The notes beneath the pieces were generated by a model. It did no database searches. It had not been told where the DNA came from and saw only the letters and a program-made list of their open reading frames with translations. From assembly GCA_963514005.1 (NCBI GenBank), contig OY740791.1, positions 43,028,001-43,092,000 on the forward strand: a stretch of DNA of 64,000 nucleotides, written 5' to 3'. Made by a program: the position numbers and the translations under genes. Of the stretch, positions 3,593 to 64,000 are shown piece after piece (the first letter of the stretch is position 1; every line of letters begins with the position of its first letter). Source of the stretch: Raja brachyura. Lineage: Eukaryota.

Positions 3593-6500
3593 TGTATAGA
3601 GGTGTATGAAACCATCAGGGGAATAGATTGGGTGAATGCATATTTTTACCCAGGATAGATGAATCAAGAAGCAGAGTATATAGGATTACGGTGAGGGGGA
3701 AAGATTTAGTTGGAACCTGAGAGGTAAGTCATTGATAGGACGGCTCAGTTGCTTCATAACAGTGGGGAAGGAACTGTCCCTGAATCTGGAGGTGTGCGTT
3801 TTCACACTTCTTGCCTGATGGGAGAGGGTAGAAGAGAGAGTGACCGGGGTGAGACTTGCCCTTGATTATGTTAGTGGCCTTGCCGAGGCAGCGTGAAGTG
3901 TAGATGGAGGCAATGGAAGGGAGGCTGCGATATGTGTGGGGGGGGGGGGGGGGGGGGGAGGTTGATATGAGGAGACTAGAGTGAGCTTGAGCTTGGCAAA
4001 GACGCTCAGCTGTCATCAACGCCAATTTCAGACTGAGATATCAGATTCCAATTTCCATATTCTGGAGAACGTTAAACCTCCATGTCAATAAAGAACAGGA
4101 AATTCTCGCAGAAAGTTGGCTTGAGGCTCCACTTCTACCATGCCACAGAATCACTTTGTTCCTGAAACAATTTAGCTTTTCAAAATCTTTGACTGCAACC
4201 CCCCCTGTGTACAACTTGTTCCATCGACGTTTAACACTTTGTGTGCTTCCATGAAGTAATTACAGTTCAAGAGGTTGCTCGTTCCAGCAGCCAGCACCTA
4301 ACCTAGGCTGAGATGCCCTGTGCTACAGACCTAGGACGAGTGTAGATGGGACATGTTGGTTGGAGTGGGCAATTTGGGTTGAAGAGCCTGTTTCAACATT
4401 GTATGACTCTGTGAGAGCAGACCCTGCGGCCGCAATAAATGCACGTGCCCCCTGCCAGCCCATTTGATTGCAACATCATGCGGATTTGGCTGCCCCTCTG
4501 CTCGCCCAGCTGCCTCTGCATTGCTCAGTGGCAGAGTGACTCCAGATACGAGTTCTATGCCCACAGTCAGTGAATTCACAGATGCATTCACCACATGCGG
4601 TCCAGCCAGCTCTCCCCCCTACCCACTCCCCACTCCCCACCCCTATTAGTGCCCCCCCAGAGTGAGATCTGCACAGGGCTGTAAAGACCAGCACTATCTC
4701 CAGCCCTAGCTCATAGAGTGACCCAGTGGTAGAGTTGCTGCCTCACCGTGCAAGAGACCTGGTTTTGATCATGATTATGGGTGCTGTCTGTACAGATTTT
4801 GTACGTTCTCCCCATGGCCATGTGGGTTTTCTCCGGGTGCTCCCGCTTCCTCCTACACTCCAAAGACGTACAGGTTTGTAAAATTGTACATTTTACCCAG
4901 TGTGTAGTGTAATGCTAGTGTGCAGGGCTCGCATGGGCTGCACAGACTGGGTGGGCAGAATGGTCTGTTTCCGCACTGTGTCTCTACAGTAAACTAAACC
5001 ACCCTGACTCTAACAACAGGTCAGCATCGCCCCAATTGAGGGAATTCCCTTGTTTTGCCTGTGGTCCACAAGGAAATGGGCCAAATGCAGGCAGCAGGGG
5101 CATGTTGGTCAGCATGGGCCAGGTGGGCTGAAGGGCCTGTTTCCATGCTGTGACATCTGTCTGCACCACCACACCCGGCAGCGCATTCAGGGCCCTCACC
5201 ACCCTCTGAGCAAACAATTGCCCTGCACATCTCCTTGAAACATTGCCCCTCTCATCCACCTTAAAGCTAAGCCCTCTATTCCTTGACATTTCCACTCTGG
5301 GGAAATGGTTCTGACCGTCCACCCAAAAAGTTTCTGACTCTCATAATTTTAAATACTTCTATCAGGTCATATAGTCAAACAGTGCGGAAACAGGCCCTTC
5401 GGCACAACTTGCCCACACCGGCCAACATGTCCCATCTACACGAGTCCTACCTGCCTGTGTTTGGCCCATATCCCTCTCAACCTTTCCTATCCATGTACCT
5501 GTGAAAGTGTTTGTTAAACATTGTGATGGTACCTGCATAGGTGTCCCCTCGACCTCCGACTTTCCATTGAAAACAATCCAAGGCTGTCAGACCTACTGGA
5601 GTCAAATAATCCCTGTGACATTATTCAAACAGGGACATCCGACGGGACCCAATCTTTTAATTTAAGAGGTGAATCTGGAATATATCATCATAAAAATTCT
5701 ACCACTGTTTTCATCTCCAGTTGATCTGCTGCCTATTGGCAATTTAATAAAGGACCCATCTCCTGGGAGAGTGAAGATGTGTCCATAATTCAAATGGAGA
5801 ACGAAATAAGAATGGAGGGATAAATGCCAATAAAAATGAGTGAGTCATGCGGGATTGCAAGAGCAATATGTGTAGGAAGGAACTGCAGGTGCTGGTTTAC
5901 ACCGAAGATAGACACAAAATGCTGTCGTAACTCGGCGGGCCTGGCAGCATCTCTGGGGAAAAGGAATAGGTGACGTTTCGTGAGACCTTTCTTCAGAGCA
6001 ATGGTCTGCTTATGTTGAGCTTGGAGCACTGAAGCAAGTCTGATTGGCCCATCACTCTATACTGGCCATCCAGCTTCTGTCATTCACCTTCCTTCCATCT
6101 CCATCTCCCTCATTCGTTGGTCAGACTTCCCCGGTTAATGATGACATAAGGAACTGCAGATGCTTGTTTTTTTTTAAAAAACACAAAGTGCTGGAGTAAC
6201 TCAGCGGGTCAGGCAGCATCTCTGGGGAACATGGATAGATGACGTTGCAGTCAGAAAAAGAGTCCTGACCCGAAAGGTCACCTGTCCACATTCTCCAGAG
6301 ATGCTTAAGAAGGAACTGCAGATGCTGCAAAATCGAAGGTAGAAAAAAGTGCTGGAGAAACTCAGCGGGTGCAGCCCGAAACGTTGCCTATTTCCTTCAC
6401 TCCATAGATGCTGCCTGACCTGCTGGTTTATTCCAGCACTGTGTCTTTCGCTGTAAACCAGCAATGGAGTTCCTTGTTTCTAATATAAACGGTATATGGT

Positions 6501-8329
6501 GCAATAGAATCACACAGCGTGAAAACACACCCTTCGGCCCAACTTGCCCACACTGACCAACCCACCCCATCTACAAACCTGCCCGCGTTTGGCCCATATC
6601 CCTCTAAACCTATCCTATTCATGTACCTGTCTAAATGTTTCTTAAACGTTGCGATAGTTTAAACTGTAAAAAAACTGTAAACCCTAGTTTTAACAGACCC
6701 CTTTATAATGCGATTTTGGTTACAGTGGATGGACCTGCCAAGTGCCAACCCATCCCGGGTAACACCGCCACCCCGGCTTTCCACGCCACCCCCCAGTGGC
6801 AAGGTGCTCAGGCGAGCCCTCCTTCACCCACCGCACGGTGGTGTTCCAGCTGCTGTTTCAGCTCACATTGTGTCCTTCTTGGGTAGAGTGGATGCGGAGA
6901 GGATGTTTCCACTAGTGGGAGAGTCTAGGACTACACAATCACTCACAATCACAATAATACTTTATTAGGCAAGAATGTTTTGCAACATACGAGGAATTTC
7001 ATTTGCCAAGTCAGTCATACAAATAAATGCAACGGAACACACAAAATACATTTTAACATAAACAGAGAGGTCGTATCCTCAGAATTAAAGGCCGTTCCTT
7101 TAGGACGTCAGAGGATGATGAATCTGTGGAATTCTTTGCCAAGTCAATGAATATTTTTAAAGCAGGGATAGATAGATTCTTGATTAGTATGGGTGTCAGG
7201 GGACAACCATGATGGAATGGCAGAGCAGACTTGGTGGGCCAAATGGCCTAATTCTGGTCCTATCACCAATGATCTTATGACCTTATGACTTAGTTAATGG
7301 TCTCCATCAAACAGCACTGGCTTGCTTCAACTAAAGTCCGCACCTTCTAACCTCAAGGTAAGTGCTTGGGCAACCGAGCCAAGCACTGCACAAATAAACC
7401 GTTGGCACACAGCCATGCCAGCCACTCGCATAAACAAGGCTGTGTACTAAAATCTACTGTGATTTCTATAGCTTCTGAGCTGTAAACAGCCTCACTGTAC
7501 TCATCGAGCTAAATCCCTGTGGGGTAAAGACACTTCTTACACAAGAGCCACATAGAAAGACACAGGTTGGAAACAGGCCCTGCAGCCCAACGTTCCCCTG
7601 CTGACTAACATGCCCCATTTACGCTTGTCCCACCTGCCTGCATTTGGCCCATATCCCTCTAAACCTTTCCTGGCCATGTAACTATCCATATGTATTTTAA
7701 ACATTGTTACAGTACCTGCCTCAACTATCTCCTCTGCAAGCTCGTTCCATATACAGTAGCTACTACCCTCTGTGTGAAAAAGTTGCCCTGTATGTTTCTA
7801 TTAACCGTGTCGGGGTGGCAGTGTGGCGCAGCGATAGAGTTGCTGCCTCACAGCACCAGGGACCCGGGCTTGATCCTGACTAAGTGTGCTGTCTGTATGG
7901 AGTTTGCATGATCACCTTGTGACGGCGTGGCTTTACTCCGGGTGCTCTGTTTCCTCCTGCGCTCCAAGAACATTCAAGTTTGCAGCTCGATTCACTTCTG
8001 TAAATTGTCCTTAGTGTGTCGAATAGAACTAGTGTGAATGGGTGATTAATGGTCAGCGTGGACCCTTCAAGGTGGGCCGAAGGGCCTTTTTTCTACAATA
8101 TTTCTCTTTATGTACACAGCGCAGTTCAGGAAAAAAATAAAGCCTTTAACGGAGACACAAGAAACTGCAGGTGCTGGAATCTTGATCAAACGCACAACGT
8201 GCTGGAGGAACAAAGCAGGTCAGGCAGCATTTGTGGAGGGAATGGATAGGTGAGGTTTCGGGTCAGGACCCTTCTCCAGACTATAATTCTTCCAGCACTT
8301 TGTGTTTTGCTGTTGTAACAACTAATAGG

Positions 8330-8888
8330 TGTAATGCTGAGGCCTTATAAGGCATGGGCCAGACTGCATTTGGAGTATTGTGAGCAGTTTTGGGACCCAT
8401 ATCTGAGGAAGGATGTGCTGGGATTGGAGAGGGTCCAGAGGAGGTTTATGAGAATGATCCCAGGGATGAACATATGATGAGCGGTTAACATATGATGAGC
8501 GTTTGACGACACTGGGCCTGTACTCGCTGGAGTTGAGAAAGATGAGGGGGACCTCATTGAAACCTACCGAATAGTGAAAAGCCTGGATAGAGTGAGTGTG
8601 GAGAGGATGTTCCCACTAGGACTAGAGGGCACAGCTTCAGAATAAAAGGACATAGCTTTAGAAAGGAGACGAGGAGGAATTTCTTTAGCCAGAGGGCGGT
8701 GAATCTGTGGGACTCATTGCCACCGACAGCTGTGGAGGCCTAAGGTGGAGATTGACAGATTCTTGATCAATAAGGGTGCCAGCGGTTATGGGGAGAAGGC
8801 AGAAGAATGGGGTTGAGAGGAAAAATAGATCAACCAAGATTGAATGGGCTGAATGGCCTAATTCTGCTCCTATAATCTATGAACATAA
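8330..8888 (+). mobile_element. CR1 LINE 3' fragment (representative; similar pieces near 23090, 27640, 40430, 41520, 42810, 53320, 58420)
   Basis: Degenerate HLEYCxQFW / SLE-RR-RGDLIE / NLWNSLP coding sequence plus the GAATGGCCTAATTCTGCTCC 3' UTR. Confidence 0.8.
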
Positions 8889-15850: not shown

Positions 15851-15893
<43 letters not shown>

Positions 15894-17600: not shown

Positions 17601-20305
17601 TCATACGGTGATGGGCCCAGCACCCATCCCTCAGGCCCACCACGAGTCACAGGCTTAATTCCATATCTTATTCTGAACTCGTACAACTGATAAATTGTAA
17701 TCATGCCCAAATTTAGTTCTTATCCACATAACTAATCTGATTTTTGTGGCTTAACGGGCATCCAGAAAGCATTTCTTTTTAAAGCCAAATATTTCTGTGC
17801 AGCTTTTGCACAAAGTCCTATTTGGTAATCCTGTTTAATGTCTGCGATGGAACTACTTCACAAAAAACATATTTAGCTCCGAGTATTTCATAACCTGCAG
17901 TAATTAATTTAGTAGTTCTGGATTTTGTTTAATGAATTCTCCACATCAAAACTTCTGAAGGAACTCGGAGTCTCAAATAAATTCTGAGGACGAGCAACTG
18001 TGGTTACTTTGATACTAACAATAGACAGAGAGGAGATGGCAGTGTGGTGGATAGATATTCATACAGCACGGGAACAGGCCCTTCGACCCAACTTGCCCAT
18101 GCTAACCAACATGGCCCAACTACACTAGTCCCACCTGCCTGCATTCGGTGCATATCCCTCTAAACCTGTCCTATCCAGGTACCTGTCTAATATTTCTTAA
18201 ATATTATAGTACCTGCCTCAACTATCTCCACTGGCAGCTCATTCCAAACACCCTCCACTGTTGAATTAAACGCCATTTGTCATTCCTCGGCCCACTTAGC
18301 CTAGTTCAGTTTATTATTGTCACATGTACCAAGTGAAAAGCATTCGTTGCATGCTATTCAATTAACGAAAAGACTATACATAATTACAATCAAGCCATCA
18401 GCAGTGTACAGATACAGAAAATAGGAGTACGATTTAGTGCAAGATGAAGTCCAGTAGAGTTCAATTAAAGATAGTCCAAGGGTCTCCAATGAGGTTGACG
18501 GGTGGTTAGGGCTGCTCTCTAGATGGTGAGAGGATGGTATTATCCAGCTGAACAAGCTCCCTCTGTAATTATTATAGTTTAGAGATACAGCATGGAAACA
18601 GCCTTCAGCTGACCCAGTCCACGGCGACCAGCGATCAGTCGTACACTAGCAAGATGCTACACACTAGAGACAATTTACAGAAGCCAATTAACCTACAAAC
18701 CCGGGGGGTAAACACAAAATGCTGGAGTAACTCAGCGGGACAGGCAGCATCTCTGGAGAGAAGGAATGAGTGACGTTTTGGGTCGAGACCCTTCTTCCGA
18801 CTGATTTATTTATCTTTATTTGTGCTTCAGTTTGAAGGAGGGTCTCGTCACCCATTCCTTCTCTCCAGAGATGCGGCTTGCCCTGCTGAGTTACTCTGAG
18901 TTGCTCCAGCATTTTGTGTCGACCTTCGATTTAAACCAGCATCTGCAGTTCTTTCCTGCACAACCTACAAACCCGCACGTCTTTGAGATGTGGGAGGAAA
19001 CCAGAGCACCCGGAGGAAACCCACGCGGTCACAGGACTGCACCCGTAGTCAGGATCGAACCTGAGTCTCTGGCGCTGTAAGGCATCGACTCTACCTCTGC
19101 GCCACCATGTCTCCCTAATGTTCCTTCAGCACTTTGCCAAGTACCTTCAGCACTTTGTGTTTTGCTTGAGATTCCAGCACCTGCAGTTCCTTGCTTCTGC
19201 GGATACTTTTTCCCCGTTGAAGGCTCATTAACAGAGCAGGTTTCTGATGTGGAAATCACTTTTTGCCTTTGGGCAAAATCTCACACCTTCGTCTTGAGAC
19301 CAGCACACCAAACCGCACTGCTAACTTAAAAACACATTACAGATCTAAAGAGGGTGAACATATTACCCAACAGGTAAACAGACCGAAATATTTGGACAGA
19401 ATTGAGTTTCCCTTTGAACTGTGCACCTTCTGTCTTGGTGCCTTAAGAATACTTTCTGCAGGCTTGAGGAATTACTTTGAAAACAATTTTGCTTTTTTTT
19501 GTTTCAATATTATTTTTGCCTAATCACGCAATCAAAAGTCGTTCTGTACCCACACTCCCCACCGAATCCTCGTGGCTATTCATCCTGTGCACCGGTCTGA
19601 TCAATGCTCCACTTGTGTGCAGACCCTTTACTGGGAATTAAAGCATTAACTCTTTCTGTCCAAGCTTTCACAGGGCAGCACAGTGACGCAGCAGGTAGAG
19701 CTGCTGCCTCGCAGCGCCAGGGACCTGGGTTCCATCCTGACCTCGGGTGTTATCTGCTTGTGTGGAGTTTGCACGTTCTCCCTGTGACTGCTTGGATTTC
19801 CCCCGGGTGCTCCGGTTTCCTCCAACATTCCATAGACGCCCAGGTTTGTAGGTCGATTGTCCATCTGTAATTTGCCCTCTAGTGTGCAGGGAGTGGATGA
19901 GAAAGTGGGATAACATAGAACTAGTGAGAACGAGTGATCGATGGTCGGCGTGGACTGGGTGGGCAGAAGGGCCTGTTGCCACATTATATCTCTAAACAGC
20001 AGACCTCAGTACATCGGAGGCCTGGACGCAAGGAACTGCAGATGATGGTTTTCATAACAGGACACAAAGTGCTGGAGTAACTCAGCAGGTCAGGCAGCAT
20101 CTCTGGAGAACATGAATGGGTGATGTTTTGGTTCGGGGCCCTTCTTCAGACTGGGAGTCTGCTGCTTGTCACCTCAAGTCATAGAGTTACAGCGATGAAA
20201 CTAGTCCCACCTGCCCACTTTTGGCCCATATCTCCCTAAACTGTCCTATCCATGTTGTTTAAGAAGGAACTGCAGATGCTGGAAAATCGAAGGTGGACAA
20301 AAGTG

Positions 20306-20333
20306 CTGAAGAAGGGTTTCAGCCCGAAACGTT
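20306..20333 (+). ncRNA. Minimal hammerhead motif (Penelope-derived repeat)
   Basis: CTGAAGAAGGGTTTCAGCCCGAAACGTT; variant stem II that still pairs (GGGUU/AGCCC). Confidence 0.55.
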
Positions 20334-20758
20334 GCCTATTTCCTTCGCTCCATAGATGCTGCTGCACCCGCTGAGTTTCTCCAGCACTTTTGTCTACCTG
20401 TCCTATCCATGTGCCTGTCCAAGTGTCTTTCAAGATTAGTTGCTGTACCTACCTCAACCTGGGAATGATTGGGTTAACGTCTGATGAGCATTCAATGGCT
20501 CTGGGCCTGTACTCGCTGCAGTACTCAACAGCCCGCTCAACCTCTCCCTATAGCTCAGGCCCCCGAGTCCTGGCAACATCCCCGTAAAAGTTCACTGCAT
20601 TCTTTCCAGTTTAATGGCATCTCCCTTATAGCAGGGGACGACCAACCTGAACACAGTGTTTTAGAAAGAACTGCAGATGCTGGAAAAATCGAAGGTGGAC
20701 AAAATTGCTGGAGAAACTCAGCGGGTGAGGCTGCATCCATGGAGTGAAGGAAATAGGT

Positions 20759-20786
20759 GACGTTTCGGGTCAAGACCCTTCTTCAG
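20759..20786 (-). ncRNA. Minimal hammerhead motif (Penelope-derived repeat)
   Basis: Reverse complement reads CTGAAGAAGGGTCTTGACCCGAAACGTC. Confidence 0.6.
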
Positions 20787-21569
20787 AATCCCAGTCACAA
20801 GAAGGGTCTCAAACCAAAACGTCACCCATTCCTTTGCTCCATAGATGCTACCTCACCCACTGAGTTTCTCCAGCATTTTTGTCTAACTTGATACCTGAAG
20901 TATTCAAGATGGCCACAAAAAGCTGGAGTAACTCAGTGGGACAGGCAGCATCTCTGGAGAGAAGGAATGGGTGACATTTCGAGTCGAGACCCTTCTTCAG
21001 ACGCCACAGTATGCAAGTGCAGCCTCTTGATTGAGAGAACATTGTTGACATGACTCATGCAATGATTGTGTAGAAACAAGGATGTGCAGATGCTGGTTTA
21101 CATAAAAGGACACAAAGTGCTGGAGTAACTCAGTGGATCAACTTCAGAGCTGCTGCCTGACCTGCTGAGTTACTCCAGCACTCTGTGTGCTTTCATGCTG
21201 TGATTGGATGTTGAGTTGAGTTGAGTTTAGTTTAGTTTAGTTGAGTTTATGCAGTCAACGGAAAGACTATACATGATTACAATTGAGCCCTTCACGTGCA
21301 TAGATACAGAGTAATGTTTAGTGCAAAGTCCAGTAAAGTCTGATTAAAGATAGTCTGGGGGGCTCCGATGAGGTAACTGGGAGGTCAGGACGATTCACTG
21401 GTTGGACAGAACGGTTCAGCTCTCTCTCGCTCACTCTTATACCATTCTATTCTCCAACTCCCCCACATTCTACCCCTCACGCACACACTAGCAGCAATTT
21501 ACACAAGTGGGCGGGAAATGAAGCACCCGGATAAACCCACGCGGTCACAGGGAGAAGTGCAAACTTCAC

Positions 21570-25464: not shown

Positions 25465-25950
25465 CCTTTCATGTAGGTCATTCCCACACTGACTCTTCTG
25501 TCCTGGGCCTCCTCCTCTGTCAGAGTGAGGCCCAGCACAAATTGGAGGAACAGCACCTCATCTTTCGCTTGAGCAGCTTACAACCCAACGGTGTGAACGT
25601 TGATCTCTCCAATTGCAAGTAACTCCTGCATTGCCTCCCCTCACCTCTCCCCCAACCCCCCCCCCCCCCTTCCCCACCCTAGACCACAGTTTGCATCATT
25701 GTATTTCTCACGTTATTACCGTTTCCATGCCGACAATCGGCCATTTTGGGGCCTTAGCTATCTGTTGCTGGCCCTGATTTGTTCAGGCCTTTTCTTGCCT
25801 CCAGTTTATCCCCCCCCCCCCCACTTCTGCTTTCAGTCTGAACAAGGGTTCCCACCCTTTTATTTGTCTCCAGAGATGCTGCTTGACCTGCTGACCAGTT
25901 ACTCCGGCATTTTGTGTCTATCTTCCGTGTAAACCAGCATCTGCAGTTCA
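25465..25950 (+). mobile_element. Penelope-like 3' fragment
   Basis: Degenerate SVLGLL...KLEEQHLIFRL endonuclease C-terminus followed by pseudo-LTR sequence. Confidence 0.7.
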
Positions 25951-26179: not shown

Positions 26180-26770
26180 GACAAGAGACTGCAGACGCTG
26201 GTTTGCACAAAGGAACACAAAGTGCTGGAGTAACTCAGCGGGTCAGACATCATCGGTGGAGAACATGGAGAGGTGACTTTTCGGGTCAGGACCCTTCTTC
26301 AGACTGTGTAGGGGAGGGGAACTGGAAGCAAGAAAAGATCAGAACAAATCAAGGCCAACAATAGATGCCCTCTGGTCGGGATGCCCATGGTAGACCAATT
26401 GTGCTCTACCATGGGACAACGTGGTCTCGACGGGATATCTCGTTGCAAACAGTTGATTTGGTTTAACTACTTTAAATGGGGGGAAATTAGGGGGAGGGGG
26501 AGGGTGAGAAGGGGGAGGGGAAGGGGGACAAGGAAGTGCTTGTATAAGTTACCTAAAATTGGACAATTCAATGTTTGTTACCGCTGGGCAGTAAGATGCC
26601 CAAGTGGCATATGAGGTGCTGTTCCTGCAGTTTGCGTGTGGCCTCACTGTGGCAATGGAGGAGGCCCAGGACAGAAAGGTCAATATGGGAATGGGAAGGG
26701 GAGTTAAAATAGTTAGCAACCGGGAGATCCAGCAGGGCTTGGTAGACCGAGCGCAAGTGTTCGACAAAGC
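26180..26770 (-). mobile_element. Penelope-like 3' fragment
   Basis: DLPVANYFNSPSHSHIDLSVLGLLHCHSEATRKLQEQHLI in ORF 26568-26756, plus a pseudo-LTR. Confidence 0.72.
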
Positions 26771-34505: not shown

Positions 34506-35468
34506 ATTGAATTAGCCAATTTTAGGTAAACCCCCTCACTTTGTCACCCCCCCCCCTTTCCTGTTCACCACCCCAGTCCAATTCTCTAACTATCCTGCTC
34601 CATTTCCCCCCACCCCCATTCCACCTATATATCCAGCCCCAAAATTTGACTTTACATTTCATTCCCTTTCTCTCTATCTCACACCCTTTGGTTTTCCTCC
34701 CATCTTTGGCATCTGTCCATCCACCTGCCTAACAACCTTCCACCCCTCACCTGTAACAACCACCTATCACTTGTCAGGCTTTGTCCTGCCCCACCTCTCT
34801 TCTAGCTTTCTCCCCCCCCCCCCCCCCCTCCCGCCCCCCACTACAATCAGTCTGAAGAAGGGTCCCAACCCAAGATGTCACCTATCCATGTTCTCCAGAG
34901 ATGCTGCCTGGCCCGCACTTTGTGTTCTTTATAAACCACTATTTGAAGTTCCTTCAGTTTTACTTTGGTTCAGTTCAGTTCAGTTTAGTTTAGTTTAGTT
35001 TAGTTGACTTTAGTTTAGAGACACTGCATGGAAACAGGCCCTTCGGCCCACCGAGTCCGCGCAGAGAATAGATCACCCGTTAACACTAGTTCTGTGTTAC
35101 ACCATTTTCTCATTCATTTCCTACACACTGGGAATAATTTACAGAGGGCCTATTAACCTACAAACCTGCACGTCGTTGGGATGTGGGAGGAAACTGGAGC
35201 ACCTGGAGGAAACTCAAGCGGTCACAGGAAATACATGCAAACTCCACACAGACAAACAGCACCCGAGGTCAGGATCGAACCCGGCTCTCTGGCACTGTAA
35301 GGCAGCTGCTCTACCAGCTATGCTACTGTGCCACCCTAATAATGCTGGTCTTCGTAAGAAGCAAAGAGGTTTGAAAAAAGAATAACATGTAAAGTCAGAG
35401 GGAGGGAACCTCTTTTCTTACTTGTGCAGGAAGGAACTGTAGATGCTGGTTAAATCCGAAGACCCAGC

Positions 35469-35496
35469 CTGAAGAAGGGTCTCGACCCGAAACGTC
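35469..35496 (+). ncRNA. Minimal hammerhead motif (Penelope-derived repeat)
   Basis: CTGAAGAAGGGTCTCGACCCGAAACGTC; core intact, stem I poor. Confidence 0.6.
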
Positions 35497-35799
35497 AACC
35501 ATTCCTTCTCTCCAGAGATGCTGCCTGTCCCGTTGGGTTACTCCAGCTTTTTGAGTCTATCTTCTCTTTTGTAGTTTTCTCCCCCCAACTCTATCAGTCA
35601 AAGAAGGGTCCCGACCCAAAACATCACTTGTCCATCCCCTCCACAGATGCTGCCTGACCCTCCCAGTTCGTCCACCACTTTGTTTTTTTAAAATATACCA
35701 ATAAAATATATCCACCCATTTTCCTCATCAAAGTATCATATCTGCAATATGACAATAAAATATCGTCATTCCTTCATTCAAAGTGAGGTAGAATACAGC

Positions 35800-47612: not shown

Positions 47613-48659
47613 TGCGCGCGTGCGCCTCAGTGTTTGTACTTTGTATGTTCTCCCTGTGACCACATGATTTTCCTTCGGGTGCTTCGGTTTCCTTCCACAT
47701 CCCAAAGACATGCCCATGCAGGTTTGTAGGTTAATTGATTCATTGGCCCTCTGTGAATCCCCCCTGGTGTGGGAGTGGATGAATAGATGAAAAGTGGATG
47801 AATAGATGGAAAGTGGGAAAACATAATAGAACATTGACCGGCACAGCACAGGAGGACACAAATTGCTGGAGTAACTCAACAGGTCAGTAAACCACTGGAG
47901 AACATGGATTGGTAACGTTTCAGGTTGAGACCCTTCTTCAGTACAGCACAGGGACAGGCCCTTCGGCCCACAATGCCTGTGCCAAATATGAAGCCAAGTT
48001 AAACTAATCTCCCCCTCCCTGCACGTGATCCATATCCCTCCATTCCCTGAATCTATAGCTTCCTCTGGCAGCTCCTTCCAGATACGGACTATCCTTTGAG
48101 TGAAAATTTGCCCCTGAGGTTCCTCTTAAATGTCTCTCACCTTAAGCCTGTGCCCTCTGGCTTTAAGATCCTCTAAAGAAATGTCCCGACACAAGACATC
48201 ACCAATCCGTTCTCCAGAGATGCTGCCTGACCCGTTGAGTTATTCCAGCACTTTGTGTCTATCTTTAAAATCCTATTCCCTTGGGAAAAAGACGGTGACG
48301 TTAACTTTAAACATGCCCCTCATGATCTTGCACACCTCAATAAGACCACCCTTTGGACTTTAGGATACAGCGCGGAAACTGGCCCTTCGACCCAATGAGT
48401 CAGCGACAAACAACGATCTCTCCGTAGACTAGCACTAACCCTACACACTAGGGACAATTCACAATTTTTACCGAAGCCAATTAACCTACAAACCCGCACG
48501 TCCTAAAGCACAAAGTCTAAATAAGGTCATCCCTCGCCCTCCTAGGCTCCACACAAAAAATGTCAAGGCTGTCCAACCTCTCCTTGTAACTCAAGCCGGC
48601 AAGCCAAGGATCTTGGAGCAAGGTCTCATTGGGGTGGAGAGAAGAAGGTTGTCACGTAC

Positions 48660-49742: not shown

Positions 49743-51504
49743 CTGAGGAAAGACAAGGACAAAGAAGGTGACATTTCCGTCATCGCCCAACCAACACACA
49801 CCGCTCCAGTTAAGACTGGCAACATAAGGAACCTGCAGTTCCTGCAGTGCTGACATCAGGCAAGTGGTACAGAAGTGTGAAAACACACACCTCCAGTTTC
49901 AGGGACAGTTTCTTCCCAGCTGTTGACAGGGAACTGAACCATCCTATCATCAACTAAAGAGCGGTCCTGAGCTACCATCTACCTCATTCGAGAGCCTCGG
50001 ACTATCTTTAATCAGACTGGACTGGACTTTATCTCGCACTAAACATTATTCCCTTTATCCTGCGTCTGTACACTGTGGACGGCTCGATTGTGATCATGTA
50101 TAGTCTTTCTGCCGATTGGTTAACATGCAAGAAAACTTTTGTCACTGCACCTCGGTACACGTGACATTAAACTAAACTAAACTTAACTAAACCAAAACCA
50201 CAAAGTGCTAAAGGAATTCAGTGGGTCAGGCAGCTTTGTGGAGGGTGGGGTCGGGACCCTTCTTCAGACCGACGGAGGGGGAGGGGGGAAGCTGGAAGAG
50301 AGAGGTGGGGGTGGGACAAAGCCTGGCGAGTGAGAGGTGGATACAGATTGGGGGGGGGGGGGGGGGGGGGGAGTGATGGCCAGATGGGTGGAGTAAGTGA
50401 TAAAAGCTGGAGGTGAAAAGGAGGCAAAGGGGTGTCAGAGAAGGGGAGAAAAGGAGGAGTGAAGTATAAAGTCGGAGGGAGGGATGTGGGTGGAAGGGAA
50501 CCGGGGGGGGGGAGTGGGTGGGATAAAAGTGAAATTGGAACTCATGGATGGGATATGAACGTACGGAGTTAGGGGAAGGGGTGACTGAGGGGGTGGTTAG
50601 GAGATGGTGGTAGGAATGACTGGGGATAGGGGGTGGAACAGTCACAAGAGAGAGGGGGGTATGATTTAAAATTGGAGGATTCAACGTTCATACTGCTGGG
50701 TTGTACCCTACCCATGCTGTTCCTCCAGTTAGCGTGTGGCCTCACTCGGGCAATGATGGAGGCCCAGGAATGAGTGTGGGAACGGGGATGGGAGTTAAAA
50801 TGTTTAGCTCCAGCAGGCCTTGGCGGGCCAAGCGCAAGTGTTCGGATGTCGGTATGTGGCACCAAAGGCCAGCATTTGTTGCGCATCTCTAATTGCCCTT
50901 GTATATTGTGTACCTAGTGGGAGGTGCCATGGCCACAGTGCCGGCTGAAGGCTTGTCGATCGGTGGGACCGGGAAGGAGGCGCTGGAGACGTCGGCTGGA
51001 CGTGAGGAGCGAGGGGCGGTGGGTGGGTGGGTGAACCGGGGGAATGCCTCCAGCCCCTTCAAGGTGGGCTGCAGGAGGTGCCCCCGGGTCACAAAGGTGG
51101 CCGGGTGAGGAGAGGGATACAGGTTAACCGCGTTGGTGGGGTATGTAAGGCAGATTTCCTCCTCTGAGGAATGTCAGTGGACCAGAATGTCACATCCATG
51201 GTACCCATCCCATCCATGGACACCAGATGAGTGGACCATGGTACCTATCTCAACACCAAGACCAACTGCTCCCATCTCTGTTATTGTGAGTAGTTTTGGG
51301 CGCCAGATCTGAGGAAGGAAATGCTGGCGTTGGAGAGGGTCCAGAGGAGGTTTACAACAATGATCCCGGGGATAATTGGGTTAACGTATGATAAGCATTT
51401 GATGGCACTGGGCCTGTACTCGCTGGAGTTTAGGAGGATGAGGGGACACCTCGTTGAACTCACCGAATAGTGAAAGGCCTGGATAGAGTGGATGTGGAGA
51501 GTGT

Positions 51505-52598
51505 TAAAGAAGGAACTGCAGATGCTGGAGAATCGAGGGTACACAAAAGGCTGGAGAAACTCAGCGGGTGCAGCAGCACCTAAGGAGCGAAGGAGATAGG
51601 TGACGTTTCGGGTCGAGACCCTTCTTCAGACTGGTTAGGGATCAGGGAAATGAGAGATATAGACGGTGATGTGGAGAGATAAAGAACAATGAATGAAAGA
51701 TATGCAAAAAAGTATCAATGATAAAGGAAACAGGCCATTGTAAGCTGTTTGTAGTTTGAAAATGAGAAGCTAGTGCGACTTGGGTGGGGAGAGATAGAGA
51801 GAAGGAATGCCAGGGCCCGAGGGCTGAGGGAGAGGTTGGAGGGGGAGGAGACAGCCAGGGTTAACAGAATTGAGAAAATTCAATGTTTAAGCCCAGAGGA
51901 TGCAGACTCCCCAAGCGGAATATGAGGTGCTGTTCCTCCAACTTGCGGTGTTGCTCACTCTGGCCTTGGATGAGGCCCAGGACCGAGAGGTCGGATACGG
52001 AATGGGAGGGGGAGTTGAAGTCTGTGCCACCGGGAGGTCGGGTTGGTTATTGCGGACCGAGCGGAGGTGTTCGGCGAAACGATCGCCAAGCCTCCGTTTG
52101 GTCTCACCGATATAGATCAGTTGGCATCTGGAGCAACGGATGCAGTAGATGAGGTTGGAGTAGGTGCAGGTGAACCTCTGTTGGACCTGGAAGGACTGCT
52201 TGGGTCCCTGAAAGGAGTGGAGGGGGGAGGTGAAGGGACAAGTGTAGCATCTCTTGCGGTTGCAAGGGAAAGTGCCCGGGGAAGGGGTGGAGCGGGAGGG
52301 AAGGGAAGAATTGACAAGGGAGTTGCGGAGGGAGCGGTCTTTGTGGAAGGCAGACGGGGGGGAGATGGGAAGATGTGGCGAGTGGAGGGGTCACGTTGGA
52401 GGTGGCGAAACTGGCGGAGGACTATGTGTTGTATGTGCCGGCTGGTGGGGTGAAAGGTGAGGACCAGGGGACTGCCCTTGTTGTGAGTGGGGGAATGGGC
52501 AGAGAGGGCAGTGTTGCGGGGTATGGAGGAGACCCTGGTGCGAGCCTCATCTATAGTGGGGGAGGGGAATCCCCGTTCTCTGAAGAATGAGGACATTT
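51505..52598 (-). mobile_element. 5'-truncated Penelope-like element (GIY-YIG endonuclease plus 3' pseudo-LTR) in CD74 intron 3
   Basis: PLVLTFHP, then LIYCIRCSRCQLIYIGETKRRLGDRFAEH (GIY-YIG core at ~52100-52153) and RKLEEQHLIFRLG, followed by the terminal repeat with a hammerhead motif. Confidence 0.9.
51602..51629 (-). ncRNA. Minimal type I hammerhead ribozyme motif in Penelope pseudo-LTR
   Basis: CUGAAGA-A-GGGUC-UC-GACCC-GAAA-CG-UC: intact catalytic core, 5-bp stem II and a palindromic ACGU in place of stem III. Confidence 0.72.
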
Positions 52599-53116
52599 GT
52601 GATGTGGAGAGGATGTTTCCACTGGTGGGAGAGTCAAGGTCCAGAGGGTGGTGTAAAGCCCCAGAATAAAAGTATGTAGCTTTTGAATAGAGATGAGGAT
52701 GAATTTCTTTAGCCAGATGGTGGTGAATCTATGGAATTCATTGCGACGGTCGGCTAAGAAGGCCAAGTTGATGAAAAAAATTTTAGACAGAGATTGACGG
52801 ATCTTGTTTAGTACGGGTGTCAAAGGATATGGGTAGAAGACAGGAGAATAGGATTGGGAGGGAAAGATGGAACAGCCATGATTGAATGATTGAATTAAGC
52901 CAAGCCACAACTCGAATGGCCAAATTCTGTTTCAATGATTTATGGACATGGACATCTGCCACCTCCCCAGCCTTTGTGTCTTAGCTTCTGAATCCCGAAC
53001 CCTTGCTTTGTTTCGTTAAGACCTAATGAAGGGAACGGAGGAGGCCCAGGGCTGAAAGGTCGGTGTGGGAATGGGATGGGGAGTTAATATTCCATAATGT
53101 TTCGGTGAGAAGTCAC

Positions 53117-55090: not shown

Positions 55091-58000
55091 TGGAAGTAAA
55101 ACTGGTGTTCAGGACTTCTGAAAACTTCCACTGGACGGCACAACAAATAACAATGAGCCGTGAATCCAATAAATGTCAGGATCTGTGTGTCTCTCTCTCT
55201 CTCTCTCTCATTCCCCTCCTTCCAAAGTCTCTCAGCTACTCTCCAGATTCTTACACATCACGCAAACAGGCCATTCAGCCCAACTCATCCATGCCGACCA
55301 AGATGCCCAATCTAAACTAGTCCCAACTCCCTTATCCGGGGATATGGATGGAAGATGAGTTAAATTGGTTAGCAATAGACATTAGGTGCAGGAGTAGGCC
55401 ATCCGGCCCTTCAAGCCAGCACCGCCATTCAATGTGATCATGGCTGATTATCCCCAATCAGTACCCTGTTCCTGCCAATATCCCCTGACGCTGCTATCTT
55501 TAAGAACCCTATCTAGCTCTTTCTTGATAGTATCCAGAGAACTGGCCTCTACCGCCCGCTGAGGCAGAGTATTCCACAGACTCACAACTCTCTGTGAGAA
55601 AATGTGTTTTCACATCTCTGTTCTAAATGGCTTGCCCGTTATTAATACCCCTTAGCAACCGGGAGATCCCGTAGGCCTTAGTGGTCGAGCGTAAATTGTT
55701 CAGATGTCTGGCATCGTTGGATTTATTGACTATCCCCAATTGTTCTTGTGTCTCGTGAGAGGTCTAGAGAAGTTAAGAGTCACCCACGATGGTGGGTGTA
55801 GGCTCAGGCAGGGTATGGAAGGCAGATTTCCTCCTCTGAGGGATGTTAGTGGACCTTCCAAGACAACTGTTTCCATCTCCTTCATACCATCTGCCCCCTC
55901 TCCTGCCTTTGTGCCTTAGCTTCTGAATTCCCATTCCATTGACTTAATGTGGGGAGACAGGTTGTGCGAGTGGAGGGGAGGAAGGGGGCCATGAATTACA
56001 GGGGTCAACCTTCCATCCTGACAAATCCATCGCTTGTGGGCAAGGACCAACAGTTTATTTCACTAGTCTCAAGAAGGGTCCTGACCCGAAACATCCCCTG
56101 TCCATTCCCCTCCACACCTTCCCTGGCCAGCAATGAACTATCAGGCACCACCCTGCCTGAGGTCATTAGTGGTCGTTCAAGCTTGGTCCTGGTCTTTCCT
56201 CGACTCCAGTCATCACCCCCCTCTCGACTTCACCCCCACCCCACTTTCAGTCTGAAGAAGAGTCGCAACCAGAAACGTCACCTATCCATGTTCTCCAGAG
56301 ATGCTGCCTGAGTTACTCCAGCACTATTTGTTTTGTTCAGGATTCCAGCATTTACAGTTGCATGAGTTTACAGAACATAGATTTGCGTCTCACCACTGAC
56401 CTCTGGTGGAGGTGGAGAGTGTCTACGGATCATGGTAGACACCAAAAGTAACATAGAAACATAGAAGGGTCTCGACCAGTCTGAAGAAGGGTCTCGACCC
56501 GAAACATCGCCTTTTCCTTCTCTTCATAGATGCTGCCTCACCCGCTGAGTTCCTCCAGTATTTTTGTCTACCTTCGATTTTTCCAGCATCTGCAGTTCTT
56601 TCTTAAACATAGAAAATAGGTGTAGGACTAGGCCATTCAGCCCTTCAAGCCAGCACCGCCATTTAATATGATCATGGCTGATCATCCAGAATCAGTTCCC
56701 CGTTCATGCTTTTTCCCCATATCCCTTGATTTCATTAGCCCTAAGAGCTATATCTAGCACTCTCTTGAAAACATCCAATGGATTGGCCTCCACTGCCTTC
56801 TGAGGCAGAGAATTCCACAGATTCACAACTCTCTGGGTGATAAATTTGTTCCTTATCTCAAGTCCTACCCCTTATTCTTAAACTGTGACCTGTGGTTCTG
56901 GACTTTTTTTCCTGCATCTAGCCTGTCCAATCCCTTAAGAATTTTATACAATAGACAATAGGTGCAGGAGTAGGCCATTCGGCCCTTCGAGCCAGCACCG
57001 CCATGCAATGGCTAAATTTTTTATGTTTCTATAAGATCCCCTCTCATCCTTCTAAATTCCAGTGAATATAAGCCCAGTGTACATAGAACAGTACAACACA
57101 GAAGTGGGCTCTTCGGCCCACAGTGTTGGTGTTGGCATGATGCCAAATGAGCAAGGGGAGAATGGCCAGGTGGATTTGCCAGTGTTTTCTGTTGGGGGTT
57201 TTCCATCCTTCTCTCCACCTCCTCCCCATCCTGCCCCCACCCACCCTTCCCAAGCCACAACAGTCTGTAGAAGGGTCCGAACCCAAAGTGTCACCTATCC
57301 AGGTTTTCCAGATCACTCCCTGATTAGCATCAAGAAAGTGGTGGAGAGACACACTCGTGAACTGCTGAAGTCCTTCTCTTGGTGAACTGTTGGTTTTTTG
57401 TTGACTCCTATGGTGTTGATGGAGAGGAATTTCCAGCATTTACACCTGGTGTGTGTCCAAGTCATGATGGTTTGTACCAAAGATGAATGCAAAGTGCTGG
57501 AGTAACACAGCAAGTTAGGCAACAAGTAACTCAGCGGGAAGAAGGGTCTCGACCCGAAACGTCGCCTATCTCCTTCGCTCCTTAGATGCTGCTGCACCCG
57601 CTGAGTTTCTCCAGCTTTTTGTGTAACCCTCGATTCTCCAGCATCTGCAGTTCCTTCTTTAACAAGTAACTCAGCGGAACAGGCAGCTTCTCTGGATAGA
57701 GGAATGGGTAGCGTTTCAGGTCGAGACCCTTTTTCGGTCTCGGCATTACCTTCCTACACATAACGGATGATGGTACATAGACTCACGTACCACAGAAACA
57801 GGACATTCGGCCCACCGTGTCCATGCTGGCCACTCATCTTTACTAACCTTACTTGCCAGTATTTTGCCTGAATCTTCCTAAACTATGGTATTTTATAAGA
57901 GCAGGAGCAGACTCAGGCCATTCAGTCCTACTCTGCCATTCAATCATGGCTGATCTATTTTTTCCTCTCAACCCTGTTCTCCTGCCTTCTTTTCATAACC

Positions 58001-59734
58001 TTTGACTCCATACTAAACAAGAGCCTATCAATCTCCTTAAAAGGACCAATGACCAGGCCTCCACCACCATCTCTAGCAATGAATGCCATGGATTCACCAA
58101 CCCCTGGCTAAAGAAATTCCTCCTTGTCTCCTTTCTAAAGGTACGTCCTTTTGTTCTGAGACTGTGCCATCTGGTCCTAGACTCTCCCACTAGTGGAAAC
58201 GTTTTTTTATTTCCCACGTCCATTCCCCACCCTAATTCCATCACCCTAATTCTAAGAACTCCCACTTGGTGAAAGAATGCCAGAGACTCTCAAATATCAA
58301 AGTGTTTTTATTGTGCGAAACCAGTTCTCCAACAGGAAATTCCCCACAACAGGAAATGTAAATCTTTCATGATTTATAATTAGTATAGATGGGACATCTT
58401 GGTCAGCTTAAATTCATACATTTAGAAGCTCTAGGAGCAGAATTAGGCCATTCGGCCCATCGTCTACTCCGCCATTCAATCATGGCTGATCTATCTTTCC
58501 CTCTCGACCCCATTCTCCTGCCTTCTCCCTGTAACCCCTGACAACCATTACTAGAATCTGTCAATCTCCACCTTAAAAATACCCAATGACTTGGCCTCCA
58601 CAACCGTCTGTGGCAAATAATTCCACAGATTCACCTTCCTCTGACTAAAGAAATTCCTCCTCATCTCCTTTCTAAAGGTACGTCCTTTTATTCTGAGGCT
58701 TTACCCTCTGGTCCTAGAATCTCCCACGAGTGGAAACATCCTCTTTGCATCCATTCTATCCAGGTATGGCCAAGTTGGGCCGAAGGGGCTGTTTTCATGC
58801 AGCATCACTATAATTCTATTACTCCAACGCAATGGCAGGAACATTGAATTCTCCAATTCTATGTAACACCCCCCCCGCCCCCGCCCCCCTTTGCAGTGCC
58901 ACTCTTCCACCCTGGTGTGCACCGATTTCTCCTACCATCCAGCCCCTCCATCCCATCCCCTCCGTCCCCTTCCACCCATATCCCTCCTTCCGGCTTTACA
59001 TTTCACCCCTCCCCATATCTCTTAATCTGACATCCTTTTGTCTCCTTTTCACCTCCTTTCTTTGGCAGAGGTCAATCCAGCCAATCAAAACCCCCTCACC
59101 TGTATCTACCTATTAGTTGCCAGGCCTTGTCCTCCCCCCACCTCTTTACCAACTCCATCAGTCTGAAGGAGGGTCCCGTCTGAAACAGTGTCTGTCTGTT
59201 CCCCTCCACAGATGCTGCCTGACCCGCTGAGTTCCTCATTTTACCACTTTCAGTTCAGTTCAGTTTAATTTAATGCGTGCTCACTGAATACCACCTGTGG
59301 CTCGGCAGAAATGGAGTTGGTTAGTTCATTGTCATGTGTACCGAGCTACAGTGAGTTCAGGAGTAGGCCATTCAGCCCTTCAAGACAGCACTGCCATTCA
59401 ATATGATCATGGCTGATCATCTAAAATCAGTACCCCATTCCTGCTTTTCCCCCATAATCCCTTGATTCCTTTATCCCTATGAGCTAAATCTGACGCTCTC
59501 TTGAATTTTAGATAACTAACTTTCAACAACCCCTCCTCCTGGACCCCTTCCACCTGTATTCCCTCCTCTGGCTTCATATTTTGCATTTCTTCTCTCCTTA
59601 TCTCCTTTATCTCGCAGCCTTTTGTAATCTTGGAGGCACAAGGAACTTCCGATGCTGGTTTACAAAATGAAGACACAAAGTGCTGGAGGAACTCGGCAAG
59701 TCAGAGGCACCATCTGTGGAGAACATGGACAGGC

Positions 59735-59762
59735 AACGTTTCGGGTCGGGACCCTTCTTCAG
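59735..59762 (-). ncRNA. Minimal hammerhead motif in CD74 intron 1, sense to the pre-mRNA
   Basis: Reverse complement reads CTGAAGAAGGGTCCCGACCCGAAACGTT. Confidence 0.6.
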
Positions 59763-61969
59763 ACACAAGGAAGATGTCTTCTTCCTACCTCTGTCCACCC
59801 ATTTGCCAATCAAACCCCTTTACCTGTATTCATCTGTCATTTGCCAGGCTTTGTCCCGCCCCCACCTCTCCCTACTTTCTCCCCCCAATCCCCATCAGTC
59901 TGAAGAAGGGTCCCGACCCGAAACATCACCTTTCTATGTTCTCCAAAGATGCCGCCTGACCTGCTGAGTTACTCCAGCACTTTGTGTTTTGCTCAAGATT
60001 CCAGCATCTGCAGTTCCCTGTGTCTACGAGACCAGCTGCAAGCTCTGGCATTCTCAGCCTTTACACGTTGCAGCTGCTTCCTCTTTAATTACGACCTGGT
60101 TCAAAACTCTCCCTCATCTCCGACTTCTGCCCGGCAACTGGTGAGTCAACAGTCAGCCAATTGTCTCTCTCCCTCTGAATGCCTTGGGTGCGGCTGGGCA
60201 GGAGACGTGGAACTATTGGAGATGGTTCGGTCATTGTCACGTGTACCAGGGTACAGTGAGTGACAGGTACTTGCGTGCTAACCAGTCGGCGGAAAGACTA
60301 TATATAATGGCAATCAAGCTGTCCACAGTGTACAGATACAGGATAAAGGGAATAATGTTTAGGGCAAGATAAAGTCCAGTTAAAGATAGTCCGAATGTCT
60401 CCAATGAGGTAGATGGGAAGTCAGGACTGTTCTCTGGTTGTCGATAGGACGGTTCAGTTGCCCGATAACAGCTAGGAAGGAATTGTCCCTGAATCTGGAG
60501 GTGTGTGTATTCACACTTCTGTACCTCTTGTCTGATGTGAGAGGGGAGAAGAGGGAGTGACTGGGGTGAGACTGGTCCTTGATTATGCTGGTGGCCTTGG
60601 AATCAATGGAAGGGAGGATTGTTTGTGTGATGGTCTGGGCTGCGTCCACAACTATCACTAACTAGAGAGCGGTCCTGACCTCCCATCCAGCTCACTAAAA
60701 CATGGCTGATCTCTGCCTCCTATTCCCATTTTCCTGCCTTCTCCCAATTACCCTTGACATCCATTCTAATCAGGAATTTGTCTATCTCCGCCTTAAATAT
60801 ATCTACTGACTTGGCCTCCACGGCCCTATGTGGCAATTCCACAGATTAACTACCCTCTGACTAAAGAAGTTTCTCCTCACCTCCTTTCTAAAAGAGTGAC
60901 CAGGAGTGACCTCTGGTCCGAGACTCTCCCACCAGTGGAAACATCCTTTCCACATCCATTCTATCTATGCCTGTCGGACTATCTTTAATCAGACTTTACT
61001 AGACTTTATCCTGCAATAAACATTATGCCCTTCATCCTGTATCTGTAGACTGTAGACGGCTCGATTGTAATCAGGTATAGCTTTTCCGCTGTCTGGTTCC
61101 CACGCAACAAAAGCTTTTCACTGTACCTCGGTACACGTAGCAACTAAACCTCAAACTTCCAGAATTTAAAAACATAAAGGATGACACAGCCACAGATTTC
61201 CTTCAGACAATTAATCAAAATCAGAAGGATCATTGGCCAATACAGCACAGTACAGCATAGGAACAGGCCCTTCGGCCCACAATATCTGTGCCGACCATGA
61301 TGCCAATCTCCGCGGCTACATCTGATATTTAGATTGCTTTGTCAGACTGAAACTCACACTTCCTATTTTGTGTTTTCCCCTGAAAGTTTACAATTTTAAC
61401 TCCCTGAATGTGACCCAAAACATCTCATGCATCAATGAACAGAAAGCAGAAGTCTGAAGTAGGGTCCCGACTCAAAACATCGCCTGTACATTCCCTCCGG
61501 AGACACAGAGACGCTGTTCCTCCAGCACTCAATAAACATGTTTCTATATTTGACCTTGGGTCGCTTGCACCCAGTGGTATGAACATTGAATTCTCCAAGT
61601 TTAGATAATCTCCAACAAGCCCCCTTCCCTTTCTTCACCACCCTAGATTCGCACCTATTTCTCCCCCCGCCCCCCCCTCTTCTTTCATCTACATTCCTTC
61701 CTCTAGCTTCACAATTTGCAACTCTTCAATCCTTCCTTCTGGTGGCCTTGCCGAGGCAGCGTGAAGTGTAGATGGAGTCAATGGAAGAGTTTTGGCCCGA
61801 AACGTCGCCTATCTCCTTCGCTCCTTAGATGCTGCTGCACCTGCTGAGTTTCTCCAGCCTTTTGTGTACCCTCAATGGAAGGGAGGTTGGTTTGTGTGAT
61901 GGTCTGGGATTCTAGCTTTCCACTGCACCTCGGTACTCGTGACAATAAACTGTGCTGGACAGTTGCGAT

Positions 61970-62763: not shown

Positions 62764-62822
62764 TTTTAATCTCAACAAAGCCAAAAGGAGGAAGTTGGCT
62801 CTCCCGCAGCTTGGAAAGTCCC
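62764..62822 (-). promoter_or_regulatory. CD74 proximal promoter: NF-kB site, PU.1/ETS box, TATA-like element
   Basis: Perfect GGGACTTTCC (minus strand, 62813-62822), GAGGAAGT at 62788-62795 and ATTAAAA at 62764-62770, all within 150 bp of the ATG. Confidence 0.6.
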
Positions 62823-64000
62823 TGGCCTACCGTACTTTACCATATATAAACCCGCCCTCGAATATAAGAACCTGCATTGTGTTGGTCTAATCATGTTATC
62901 AGGCAACTGAACCACCCTGTCACCAACTAGAGAGTGGTCCTGACCTCCCATCTACCTCATTGGAGACCCTTGGACCATCTTTAATCAGACTTTACTGGGC
63001 TTTAGATACAAAAAGCTGGAGTAACTAAGTGGGTCAGGCAGCGTATCGGGGGAAAAGGAATAGGTGATATTTCAGGTCGAGACCCTTCTTGCACTATTCC
63101 CTTTATCCTGTATCTGTACACTGTGGACAGCTCGATTGTAATCATGTATAGTCTTTCCACCGACTGGATAGCACGCAACAAAAAAATCTTTTTGCTGTAC
63201 CTCAGTAAACGTGACAATAAACTCAACTAATCTAAGCCAAACTAAACTAAACTACAGTACAGAAACAGGTCTTGTACACATCTAGAGAAACTAGGAACTG
63301 CAGATACAAAAATAAACGACACAAAATGCTGGAGGAATAGTTTCACAGCGGCGCAGAGGGTAGAGCCACTGCCTCACAGTGCCAGAGACCCGGGTTTGGT
63401 CCTGACCGCGGGGGGTTAGTGTGTGGAGTTTGCACGTACTCCCTGTGACCGCGTGGGTTTTCTCTGGGTGCCCCGGTTTCCTCCCAAAATTCCACAAACC
63501 TGCGGGTTTGTAGGTTAATTGGCTTCTGTAAATTGCCCGTAGTGTGCAAGAAGTGGACGTGAAAGTGGGATCACATAGAACCAGTGTGAACGGAAGGTCT
63601 CGATGTTTCCATGCTGCATCTCTAAACTAAACTGAAATAAACTGCAGACAGCATCCCTGGAGAACATGGATAGGTGACATTTTGGGTCCACTTCTCTTCA
63701 GGCTGATTATAGGGATTTAGGGGGGCTGGTAGGTACAGCAATTTTACCAGGATGCTGCCTGGATTAGGGCCTATTAGCTTCAGGGAGAGGTTAGACAGTC
63801 TTGGATAGTTTTCTCTGTCTGGAATGTCGGAGGCTGAGGGGGGACGAGATAGCCGTATATAAAATCTAGAGAAGAATAGACAGGGTAGACAGTCAGAACC
63901 TTTTCCTCAAGGGTGCAAAACAAAGCAATAGTACCTGTGCAGAGAATAAACCTAACCCTACATCCAAAGTGAAAGGAAAGACTAAAGCAGACAAACTGCT

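Follow-up and report, generated by a model that had tools for sequence, protein, structure and literature searches.

Pseudo-LTR repeats of a Penelope-like element carrying a minimal hammerhead motif in Raja brachyura

The pseudo-long terminal repeats (pLTRs) of metazoan Penelope-like elements (PLEs) are known to carry minimal hammerhead ribozymes (Cervera and De la Pena 2014, PMC4209133). We describe here a further, extremely abundant member of this motif class, found in a 64,000-nt stretch of the Raja brachyura genome (contig OY740791.1, positions 43,028,001 to 43,092,000, hereafter the window). A first-pass annotation of the window had taken the repeat for a Penelope pLTR with a minimal type I hammerhead, and the core, the architecture and copies linked to an open reading frame (ORF) all agree with this: the repeat is the pLTR end of a Neptune-type PLE. 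We consider it likely that the ORF-less copies are dead by-products of the element, produced when the Penelope reverse transcriptase (RT) starts internally and runs off the 5' end, probably capped, of its RNA.

Neptune-type elements with an endonuclease (EN+ PLEs; Craig et al. 2021, PMC8557442) combine an RT with a C-terminal GIY-YIG domain and a CX2-5CXXC linker, and occur as partial tandems, with inverted 5' copies and a 30-40-bp tail that is often present at one end only; all of these traits recur here. 5' truncation is described there in general terms, whereas in Raja about half of the young copies stop at a single point and outnumber the ORF-linked ones. In the Poseidon element PAc of the green anole (Frangieh et al. 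2024, PMC11167929), reverse transcription begins at two internal positions, which delimit the tail. Both strands undergo cutting and extension, the main template is RNA that has not been cut, and sequence downstream of the start sites is also required. We read the Raja copies in the same way. The anole hammerhead, which cuts only with the protein, is situated where pLTR and ORF meet, and the same holds here. The accessible part of that paper does not treat copies that run off at the start of the RNA.

Identity of the repeat and of its hammerhead

An iterated nhmmer profile detected 47 copies in the 64-kb window (46 when other loci were searched along with it) and none in the reversed window; the first-pass annotation had counted more than 20 copies. 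The exact core pattern matched 60,059 times genome-wide and never in the reversed control. From 347 copies in 80 systematic 10-kb samples, we estimated 1.17 million copies in the 2.7-Gb genome (0.98-1.37 million). The repeat is indeed very abundant and, as had also been proposed, mostly ORF-less. A strict minimal-hammerhead descriptor was passed 33 times in the 0.8 Mb sampled, which extrapolates to about 110,000 motifs genome-wide, compared with 4,000-9,000 for coelacanth and Xenopus (PMC4209133). The accessible text of that paper names neither cartilaginous fish nor a fixed 5' edge. A literature search with few subscription papers within reach found no description of the Raja family in cartilaginous fish, or of pLTR copies with a fixed start. 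The window itself is ordinary repeat content, with a known motif class and inserted copies that are decaying. Its interest lies in the scale and in the statistics of copy ends: with about a million sharply ended copies, how PLEs copy themselves and what their hammerhead is for can be put to specific and inexpensive tests.

The parent element was recognised both in the window and elsewhere. The copy at 51602 was confirmed to follow a GIY-YIG ORF, although the frame is frameshifted and its Pfam match (E 1.7e-4) falls just under the curated cut-off; this frame had 150 scored matches among 134,071 candidates. Endonuclease fragments precede two further window copies, at 26304(-) and 25836(+), and a third endonuclease-linked copy is probable at 50269(-) (blastn only). 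A near-full-length element in partial tandem (locus L041) contains an RT with the YIDD motif, the CX4CX2C linker that is also present in the window frame, and GIY-YIG, in the order truncated copy, pLTR module, 5' untranslated region (UTR), long frame and second module. In its 1037-aa frame, the matches to RVT_1 (E 4e-4) and to GIY-YIG (E 2e-3) fall below the Pfam cut-offs, and the atlas clusters for this frame gave RVT_1, HTH_animal and GIY-YIG at 0.95-0.97. In long copies the module follows the GIY-YIG ORF and the 3' UTR; in tandem copies it precedes the 5' UTR and the first ATG, 163 nt past C3 of the core, whereas the PAc ORF begins within its hammerhead (PMC11167929). Partial-tandem pLTRs, inverted 5' copies, an optional tail and target-site duplications were all found. 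The Neptune clade was assigned by motif and architecture rather than by a tree, and the CX2-5CXXC linker is also present in Nematis (PMC8557442).

Seven cores in the window passed the descriptor, and Markov shuffles gave none in 20 out of 20. They comprise all five positions previously listed as intact, with C3 at 20306(+), 20786(-), 35469(+), 51629(-) and 59762(-), together with 47941(-) and 21000(-). Every descriptor hit has CUGANGA, GAAA and UH, the extra base after A9, the G10.1-C11.1 pair and the palindromic 15.2-16.2, as in the published metazoan pLTR motifs (PMC4209133); those families, like this one, consist mostly of single dispersed copies, with opposite-strand pairs in some cases and few members within full elements. 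In two copies described as near-intact, 56481(+) and 59900(+), the 11 core nucleotides survive, whereas the palindrome of helix III is gone (GAAACAUC). The extent of the family and a selection of its copies are as follows.

5907..63701, both strands: whole repeat family, 95-130-nt pLTR modules (iterated nhmmer profile)
51499..52600, minus strand (5' limit approximate): 5'-truncated PLE with the end of the RT thumb, the CX4CX2C linker, the frameshifted GIY-YIG frame, the 3' UTR and a pLTR module with tail
51602..51629, minus strand: intact minimal hammerhead, ORF-linked, stem I of 2 bp, between two CD74 exon matches in sense orientation
47853..47941, minus strand: ORF-less copy from C3, core intact, stem II weakened, sense to CD74
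35468..35561, plus strand: ORF-less copy starting near C3, intact hammerhead at 35469-35496, stem I of 0 bp
20909..21002, minus strand: copy with intact core; stem II contains a G-U pair, and U-G replaces the C-G palindrome
56479..56609, plus strand: ORF-less copy with tail, core retained, helix III palindrome lost
57538..57664, plus strand: young ORF-less copy starting within the core, with tail and a 17-bp target-site duplication
26188..26768, minus strand: older endonuclease-linked copy, GIY-YIG fragment at 26557-26768, module from 26304
25480..25949, plus strand: old endonuclease-linked copy with the GAAA region deleted, module copy at 25836

The stems are short. Stem II is 4 bp with a 4-nt loop, compared with 7-8 bp in schistosome families (PMC4209133); the stem GGGTC NN GACCC originally proposed would demand a 2-nt loop. 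The claim that stem II varies with pairing kept (GGGTT/AGCCC at 20306) while its loop varies freely needs revision: two-sided change was seen in 0 of 6 pairs of stems I and II among 16 copies compared, only one-sided changes that keep pairing through G-U being present and little variation being available, and the loop variation is mostly CpG decay. The A of AGCCC at 20306 was considered as a compensatory change and rejected, as it reads as CpG decay from the GGCCC subfamily. Stem I, given earlier as 2-3 bp, has no pair (0 bp) at 20306 and 35469, a single one (1 bp) at 20786, and a length of 2 bp at 51629 and 59762; among all 33 sampled descriptor hits it spans 0-3 bp, typically 2 bp. Most published families, those of schistosomes included, have a longer helix I of 4-5 bp, while D. 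virilis has 2 bp (PMC4209133). An Rfam scan returned no hammerhead family among 19 matches to E 10, and none at gathering score; this is no evidence against a hammerhead, because the minimal motif falls below the Rfam models.

Predicted folds show pairing between the core and the tail, at z -1.3 to -2.1 and with no covariation; this is a hint at most. An 8-nt tail word (+103 to +110) hardly changes from one subfamily to the next, whereas the bases around it do. Its sequence complements +48 to +55 and, in part, the CUGAAGA core.

We then compared conservation between and within subfamilies. A mixture model divided 448 copies into six subfamilies, 2.5-21% diverged from their majority sequences. 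Between subfamilies, 2 of 28 hammerhead positions differ compared with 20 of 60 downstream (p=0.008), and the 22 upstream clusters distinguished among 115 endonuclease-linked copies, some singletons of which are not true 3' UTRs, mostly converge on one module. The constancy of the motif between subfamilies indicates that the source elements were under selection for it. Inserted copies are not: in 166 of them, 146 core mismatches were observed and 145 expected from matched downstream bases (ratio 1.01, 95% interval 0.81-1.24), so that the excess of core conservation across copies, by which the first-pass annotation had proposed to judge the motif, is absent. Core A positions were slightly better kept than expected (p=0.02), and G12, which lies inside a CpG, was kept worse (34% vs 23%).

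The same observations bear on whether the motif still is a ribozyme. It could have ceased to be one in this lineage, being constant only as a core promoter or a protein-binding site, and the 2-bp stem I, the lack of two-sided covariation, the core-tail pairing of the predicted folds and the absence of a peak of copy starts at the cleavage site (see below) would all fit; for the anole element, too, the accessible text reports no reads beginning or ending at the cleavage site (PMC11167929). We nevertheless find this unlikely. Subfamilies as much as about 20% diverged still share all core positions, the extra base after A9, the G10.1-C11.1 pair and the C-G palindrome, changes in stems I and II keep pairing through G-U, and the anole hammerhead cut once its protein was added (PMC11167929).

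The fixed ends of the copies

In order to map the 5' ends, we picked 100 young copies on downstream sequence alone (47,071 such copies exist genome-wide) and read their starts by eye, taking C3 as 0. Thirty-five extend at least 34 nt into the 3' UTR, one starts at -19 and 46 start at -7 to 0. Further in, 13 start at +2 to +10, three at +20 to +22, one at +28 (the cleavage site) and one at +32. The 26 positions from -33 to -8 therefore hold a single start. The same pattern was obtained by script on 30 of the 100 and on 33 sampled copies, and the edge recurs in three other subfamily listings; the leading degenerate base of the pattern used to find the 100 copies means that edge copies are undercounted. 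At the other extremity, the scripted subset showed two 3' ends 35 nt apart, at +91-95 and +125-131.

Since about half of the young copies begin at one point, which is likely to be the capped start of an RNA, they are likely to be by-products of copying rather than a separate ribozyme parasite. Subfamilies A and C and the GGCCC variant each hold endonuclease-linked and ORF-less copies with the same hammerhead module. Endonuclease-linked members amounted to 7 of 30 in A, 4 of 30 in C, 4 of 30 in the GGCCC type and 2 of 30 in the D type, one match each in C and D belonging to a separate neighbouring element.

The sequence around the edge was informative. In exact young copies, the base ahead of AGTCTG is G in 2,039 cases, A in 1,075 and T in 627, and G precedes the edge in 55% of cases compared with 26% expected from flank composition. 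In long interspersed elements (LINEs), an extra G is a trace of cap copying, and by analogy the excess of G at the edge suggests a cap-copying signature. A downstream-promoter match lies inside the core (4 of 5 to the consensus) and was not used as support. TCAGT or CCAGT ends 11 of the 22 upstream lineage clusters, and a TCAGT ending followed by the C of CUGA matches the initiator consensus TCAGTY (PMC1779564).

Several points weigh against a capped start at the edge. The tallies come from the first 100 places, all on one contig, and six rows belong to one local triplication. A, too, is commoner than T before the edge, and some of the G excess could stem from untemplated addition of purines. 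Among the 22 upstream clusters, a TATA-like word stands at the expected distance in no more than one large cluster and two singletons, and YCAG preceded by a pyrimidine tract would suit a 3' splice site as well. Target-site duplications flank 14 of 126 solo edge copies (control 1-2). The RNA data are four runs of contigs, two of them flagged as probably DNA; contigs cannot show a transcript start, and these yielded no ends or usable splice joints either.

We examined other origins for a fixed edge, namely a 3' splice site, RT halting at the pyrimidine-rich 3' UTR, or an antisense template whose 3' end self-primes. The upstream lineages are all pyrimidine-rich and many end in CAG, an intron ends at helix I in D. 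virilis (PMC4209133), and head-to-head palindromes have been read as self-priming on an antisense template (PMC3846280). However, copies often contain the AG or CAG itself, several lineages have no AG at the edge, and target-site duplications abut the edge instead of lying beyond an exon. A diffuse stall would fill the interval from -33 to -8, which is almost empty, and the G excess is predicted by none of the splice, stall and self-priming models. We hold these origins to be improbable, and consider run-off at an RNA start more likely.

The first ATG of the long ORF is overlapped by an AG/GT that resembles a splice donor, 160 nt past the hammerhead (L041:6418-6430). Back-splicing from the AG before the core to the GT at the ATG was considered and set aside: no such junction occurs among the 100 young-copy rows or among the RNA-contig joints displayed (72 others were not displayed).

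No peak of starts was found at the cleavage site. An enriched search for starts from +24 to +41 gave seven at +27/+28, compared with about 3-5 per position from +30 to +41 and two in total at +24 to +26; about 57 of 100 rows were usable (43 were dropped for internal indels or as duplicates), scored by eye with 30 re-scored by script, so that power was low and a small peak is possible. We estimate that about 0.6% of young copies start at this site.

Paired copies, tandem arrays and the copying cycle

Many copies are arranged head to head. A partner within 160 nt was found for 138 of 393 copies, where 20 were expected, and 17 of the 46 window copies are so placed. Most classified pairs have both arms from the same subfamily, and many are perfect palindromes centred on CAG-T/A-CTG. 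The tail is present on exactly one arm in 36 of 50 scorable pairs (p=0.001), and duplications of 10-19 bp flank 16 of 46 pairs, compared with 0-2 in controls. Inverted copies and one-sided tails were already known (PMC8557442; PMC3846280). In the window these arrangements are represented by:

20256..20398, plus strand: single insertion with a 14-bp target-site duplication, an inverted tail-bearing end joined to a copy starting at C3
20306-20333, plus strand: hammerhead of that insertion, GGCCC-type subfamily, stem I of 0 bp
20655..20889: head-to-head pair, minus arm with tail and intact hammerhead (20759-20786), plus arm from 20791 decayed and tail-less
59640..60017: divergent pair, minus arm with intact hammerhead (59735-59762)
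59640..60017, same pair: plus copy at 59898 with a pyrimidine-rich, 3' UTR-like stretch in front, palindrome lost
38926..39115: head-to-head pair, both arms starting inside the core
6179..6448: two adjoining head-to-head pairs of truncated modules
18709..18922: decayed head-to-head pair

Another class of junction involves the region of the first ATG, which is contained in 1,162 copies genome-wide. Most of the 30 examined (L317-L346) consist of the 5' UTR with the opening codons, reaching about +184 to +283, joined to the 5' end of another element piece. In about 10 of the 30 rows, three of which come from one locus, the junction leads to a module starting at the same fixed edge, as expected from run-off followed by a template jump. 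Partial tandems are the form thought to be active, and such products may document how they arise.

The ORF-less copies had been tentatively read as a very abundant non-autonomous family akin to retrozymes. Non-LTR retrozymes (Cervera and de la Pena 2020, PMC7229834; Li et al. 2026, bioRxiv 10.64898/2026.07.22.740005) resemble our repeat in having a type I hammerhead, no protein, a relation to pLTRs, from which they have been proposed to derive (bioRxiv 10.64898/2026.07.22.740005), and a very high copy number. They are, however, tandem units of 150-450 nt, each with a complete and usually canonical hammerhead, and are expressed as circles as well as linear monomers, whereas the Raja copies, known from genomic sequence, are dispersed 95-130-nt singles and inverted pairs. 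The window holds no tandem units with full hammerheads, copies begin before the core and not at the cleavage site, and endonuclease-linked members with the same module occur in every subfamily checked. We conclude that the ORF-less copies are not a retrozyme family.

A broader possibility is that they form a self-propagating, retrozyme- or short interspersed element-like family, whose RNA dimeric hammerheads would cut, with circularisation and then re-insertion by the Penelope enzyme to follow. The ORF-less majority of uniform size, the target-site duplications of some copies, a slight excess of same-strand neighbours (30 of 393, with 11-27, about 19, expected) and a tandem derivative elsewhere in the genome could be taken in its favour. 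This derivative is a 66-nt piece of the module, found in dispersed arrays outside the window (L043:5988-6543, L207, L217, L261-L286) with one shared junction, of which 33,136 exact instances exist genome-wide. Many arrays have a normal hammerhead head at their start and a normal 3' end at their finish, and no endonuclease fragment lies directly upstream of them in 25 loci inspected. The unit retains GAAACGUC but is without CUGANGA and stem II, and the short copies are without the sequence past the tail that the anole protein requires (PMC11167929); we judge self-propagation to be very unlikely. In principle, the GAAACGUC half-site of the unit could partner the head in a dimer.

By-products of Penelope copying remain our preferred explanation, and the end statistics suggest how they would arise. 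The transcription start would be the A of (C/T)CAGTC, which lies three bases ahead of CUGA; the hammerhead would then be the first 31 nt of the transcript, and the presence of only three upstream bases would account for the 2-bp stem I. The two 3' ends may correspond to the two priming sites known from in vitro work on the anole element. If priming took place at +94 or +130 of the 5' pLTR, only 95-130 nt would be left to copy, which would give the short copies, while priming on the 3' pLTR would give ORF-linked, 5'-truncated ones. If both nicked strands were extended, the joining of two complementary DNA ends would produce head-to-head pairs. Short copies, having neither the upstream 3' UTR nor sequence past the tail, would be dead ends. 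The hammerhead would thus be selected in source elements, yet the RNAs copied would be uncut; with a 2-bp stem I, cutting would probably be slow and occur only as a dimer or with the element's protein, and it would remove the cap plus 31 nt.

A more complete scheme is possible, although doubtful. The copies would be a fossil record of the Penelope cycle, in which a dimeric enzyme, at two fixed sites, primes on both strands of a staggered cut and runs off at the capped start of the RNA. It would then either join the two complementary DNA ends, giving head-to-head pairs with one tail, or return to the RNA just beyond the tail, giving new partial tandems. The hammerhead, being the first 31 nt, would be a cap-removing switch, gated by protein or dimer and held off by pairing with the tail, to which the widespread 66-nt tandem derivative would give only the partner half-site.

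Neighbouring features of the window

Exons of CD74 (invariant chain) lie on the minus strand at 45996-46586 and 54355-54660 (Pfam CLIP and thyroglobulin-1 matches). The core-intact copies 47941(-) and 51629(-) are located between them, in sense orientation and 3.7 kb apart; dimer cutting at these two copies, if efficient, would break the CD74 pre-mRNA.

Other mobile elements are present. In a decayed element at 790-2918, plus strand, one frame resembles a tyrosine recombinase (atlas 0.98, with 35% of the top cluster assigned to the phage integrase family), and the frames upstream of it resemble, without any Pfam match, the RT/RNase H and methyltransferase parts of a DIRS-type retrotransposon. 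LINE reverse transcriptase fragments were found at 28970-29875, 35928-37034 (RVT_1 E 1e-14 at 35928) and elsewhere. The window also contains another short repeat in abundance, about 180 nt long (families D3, D5, D8 and D12).

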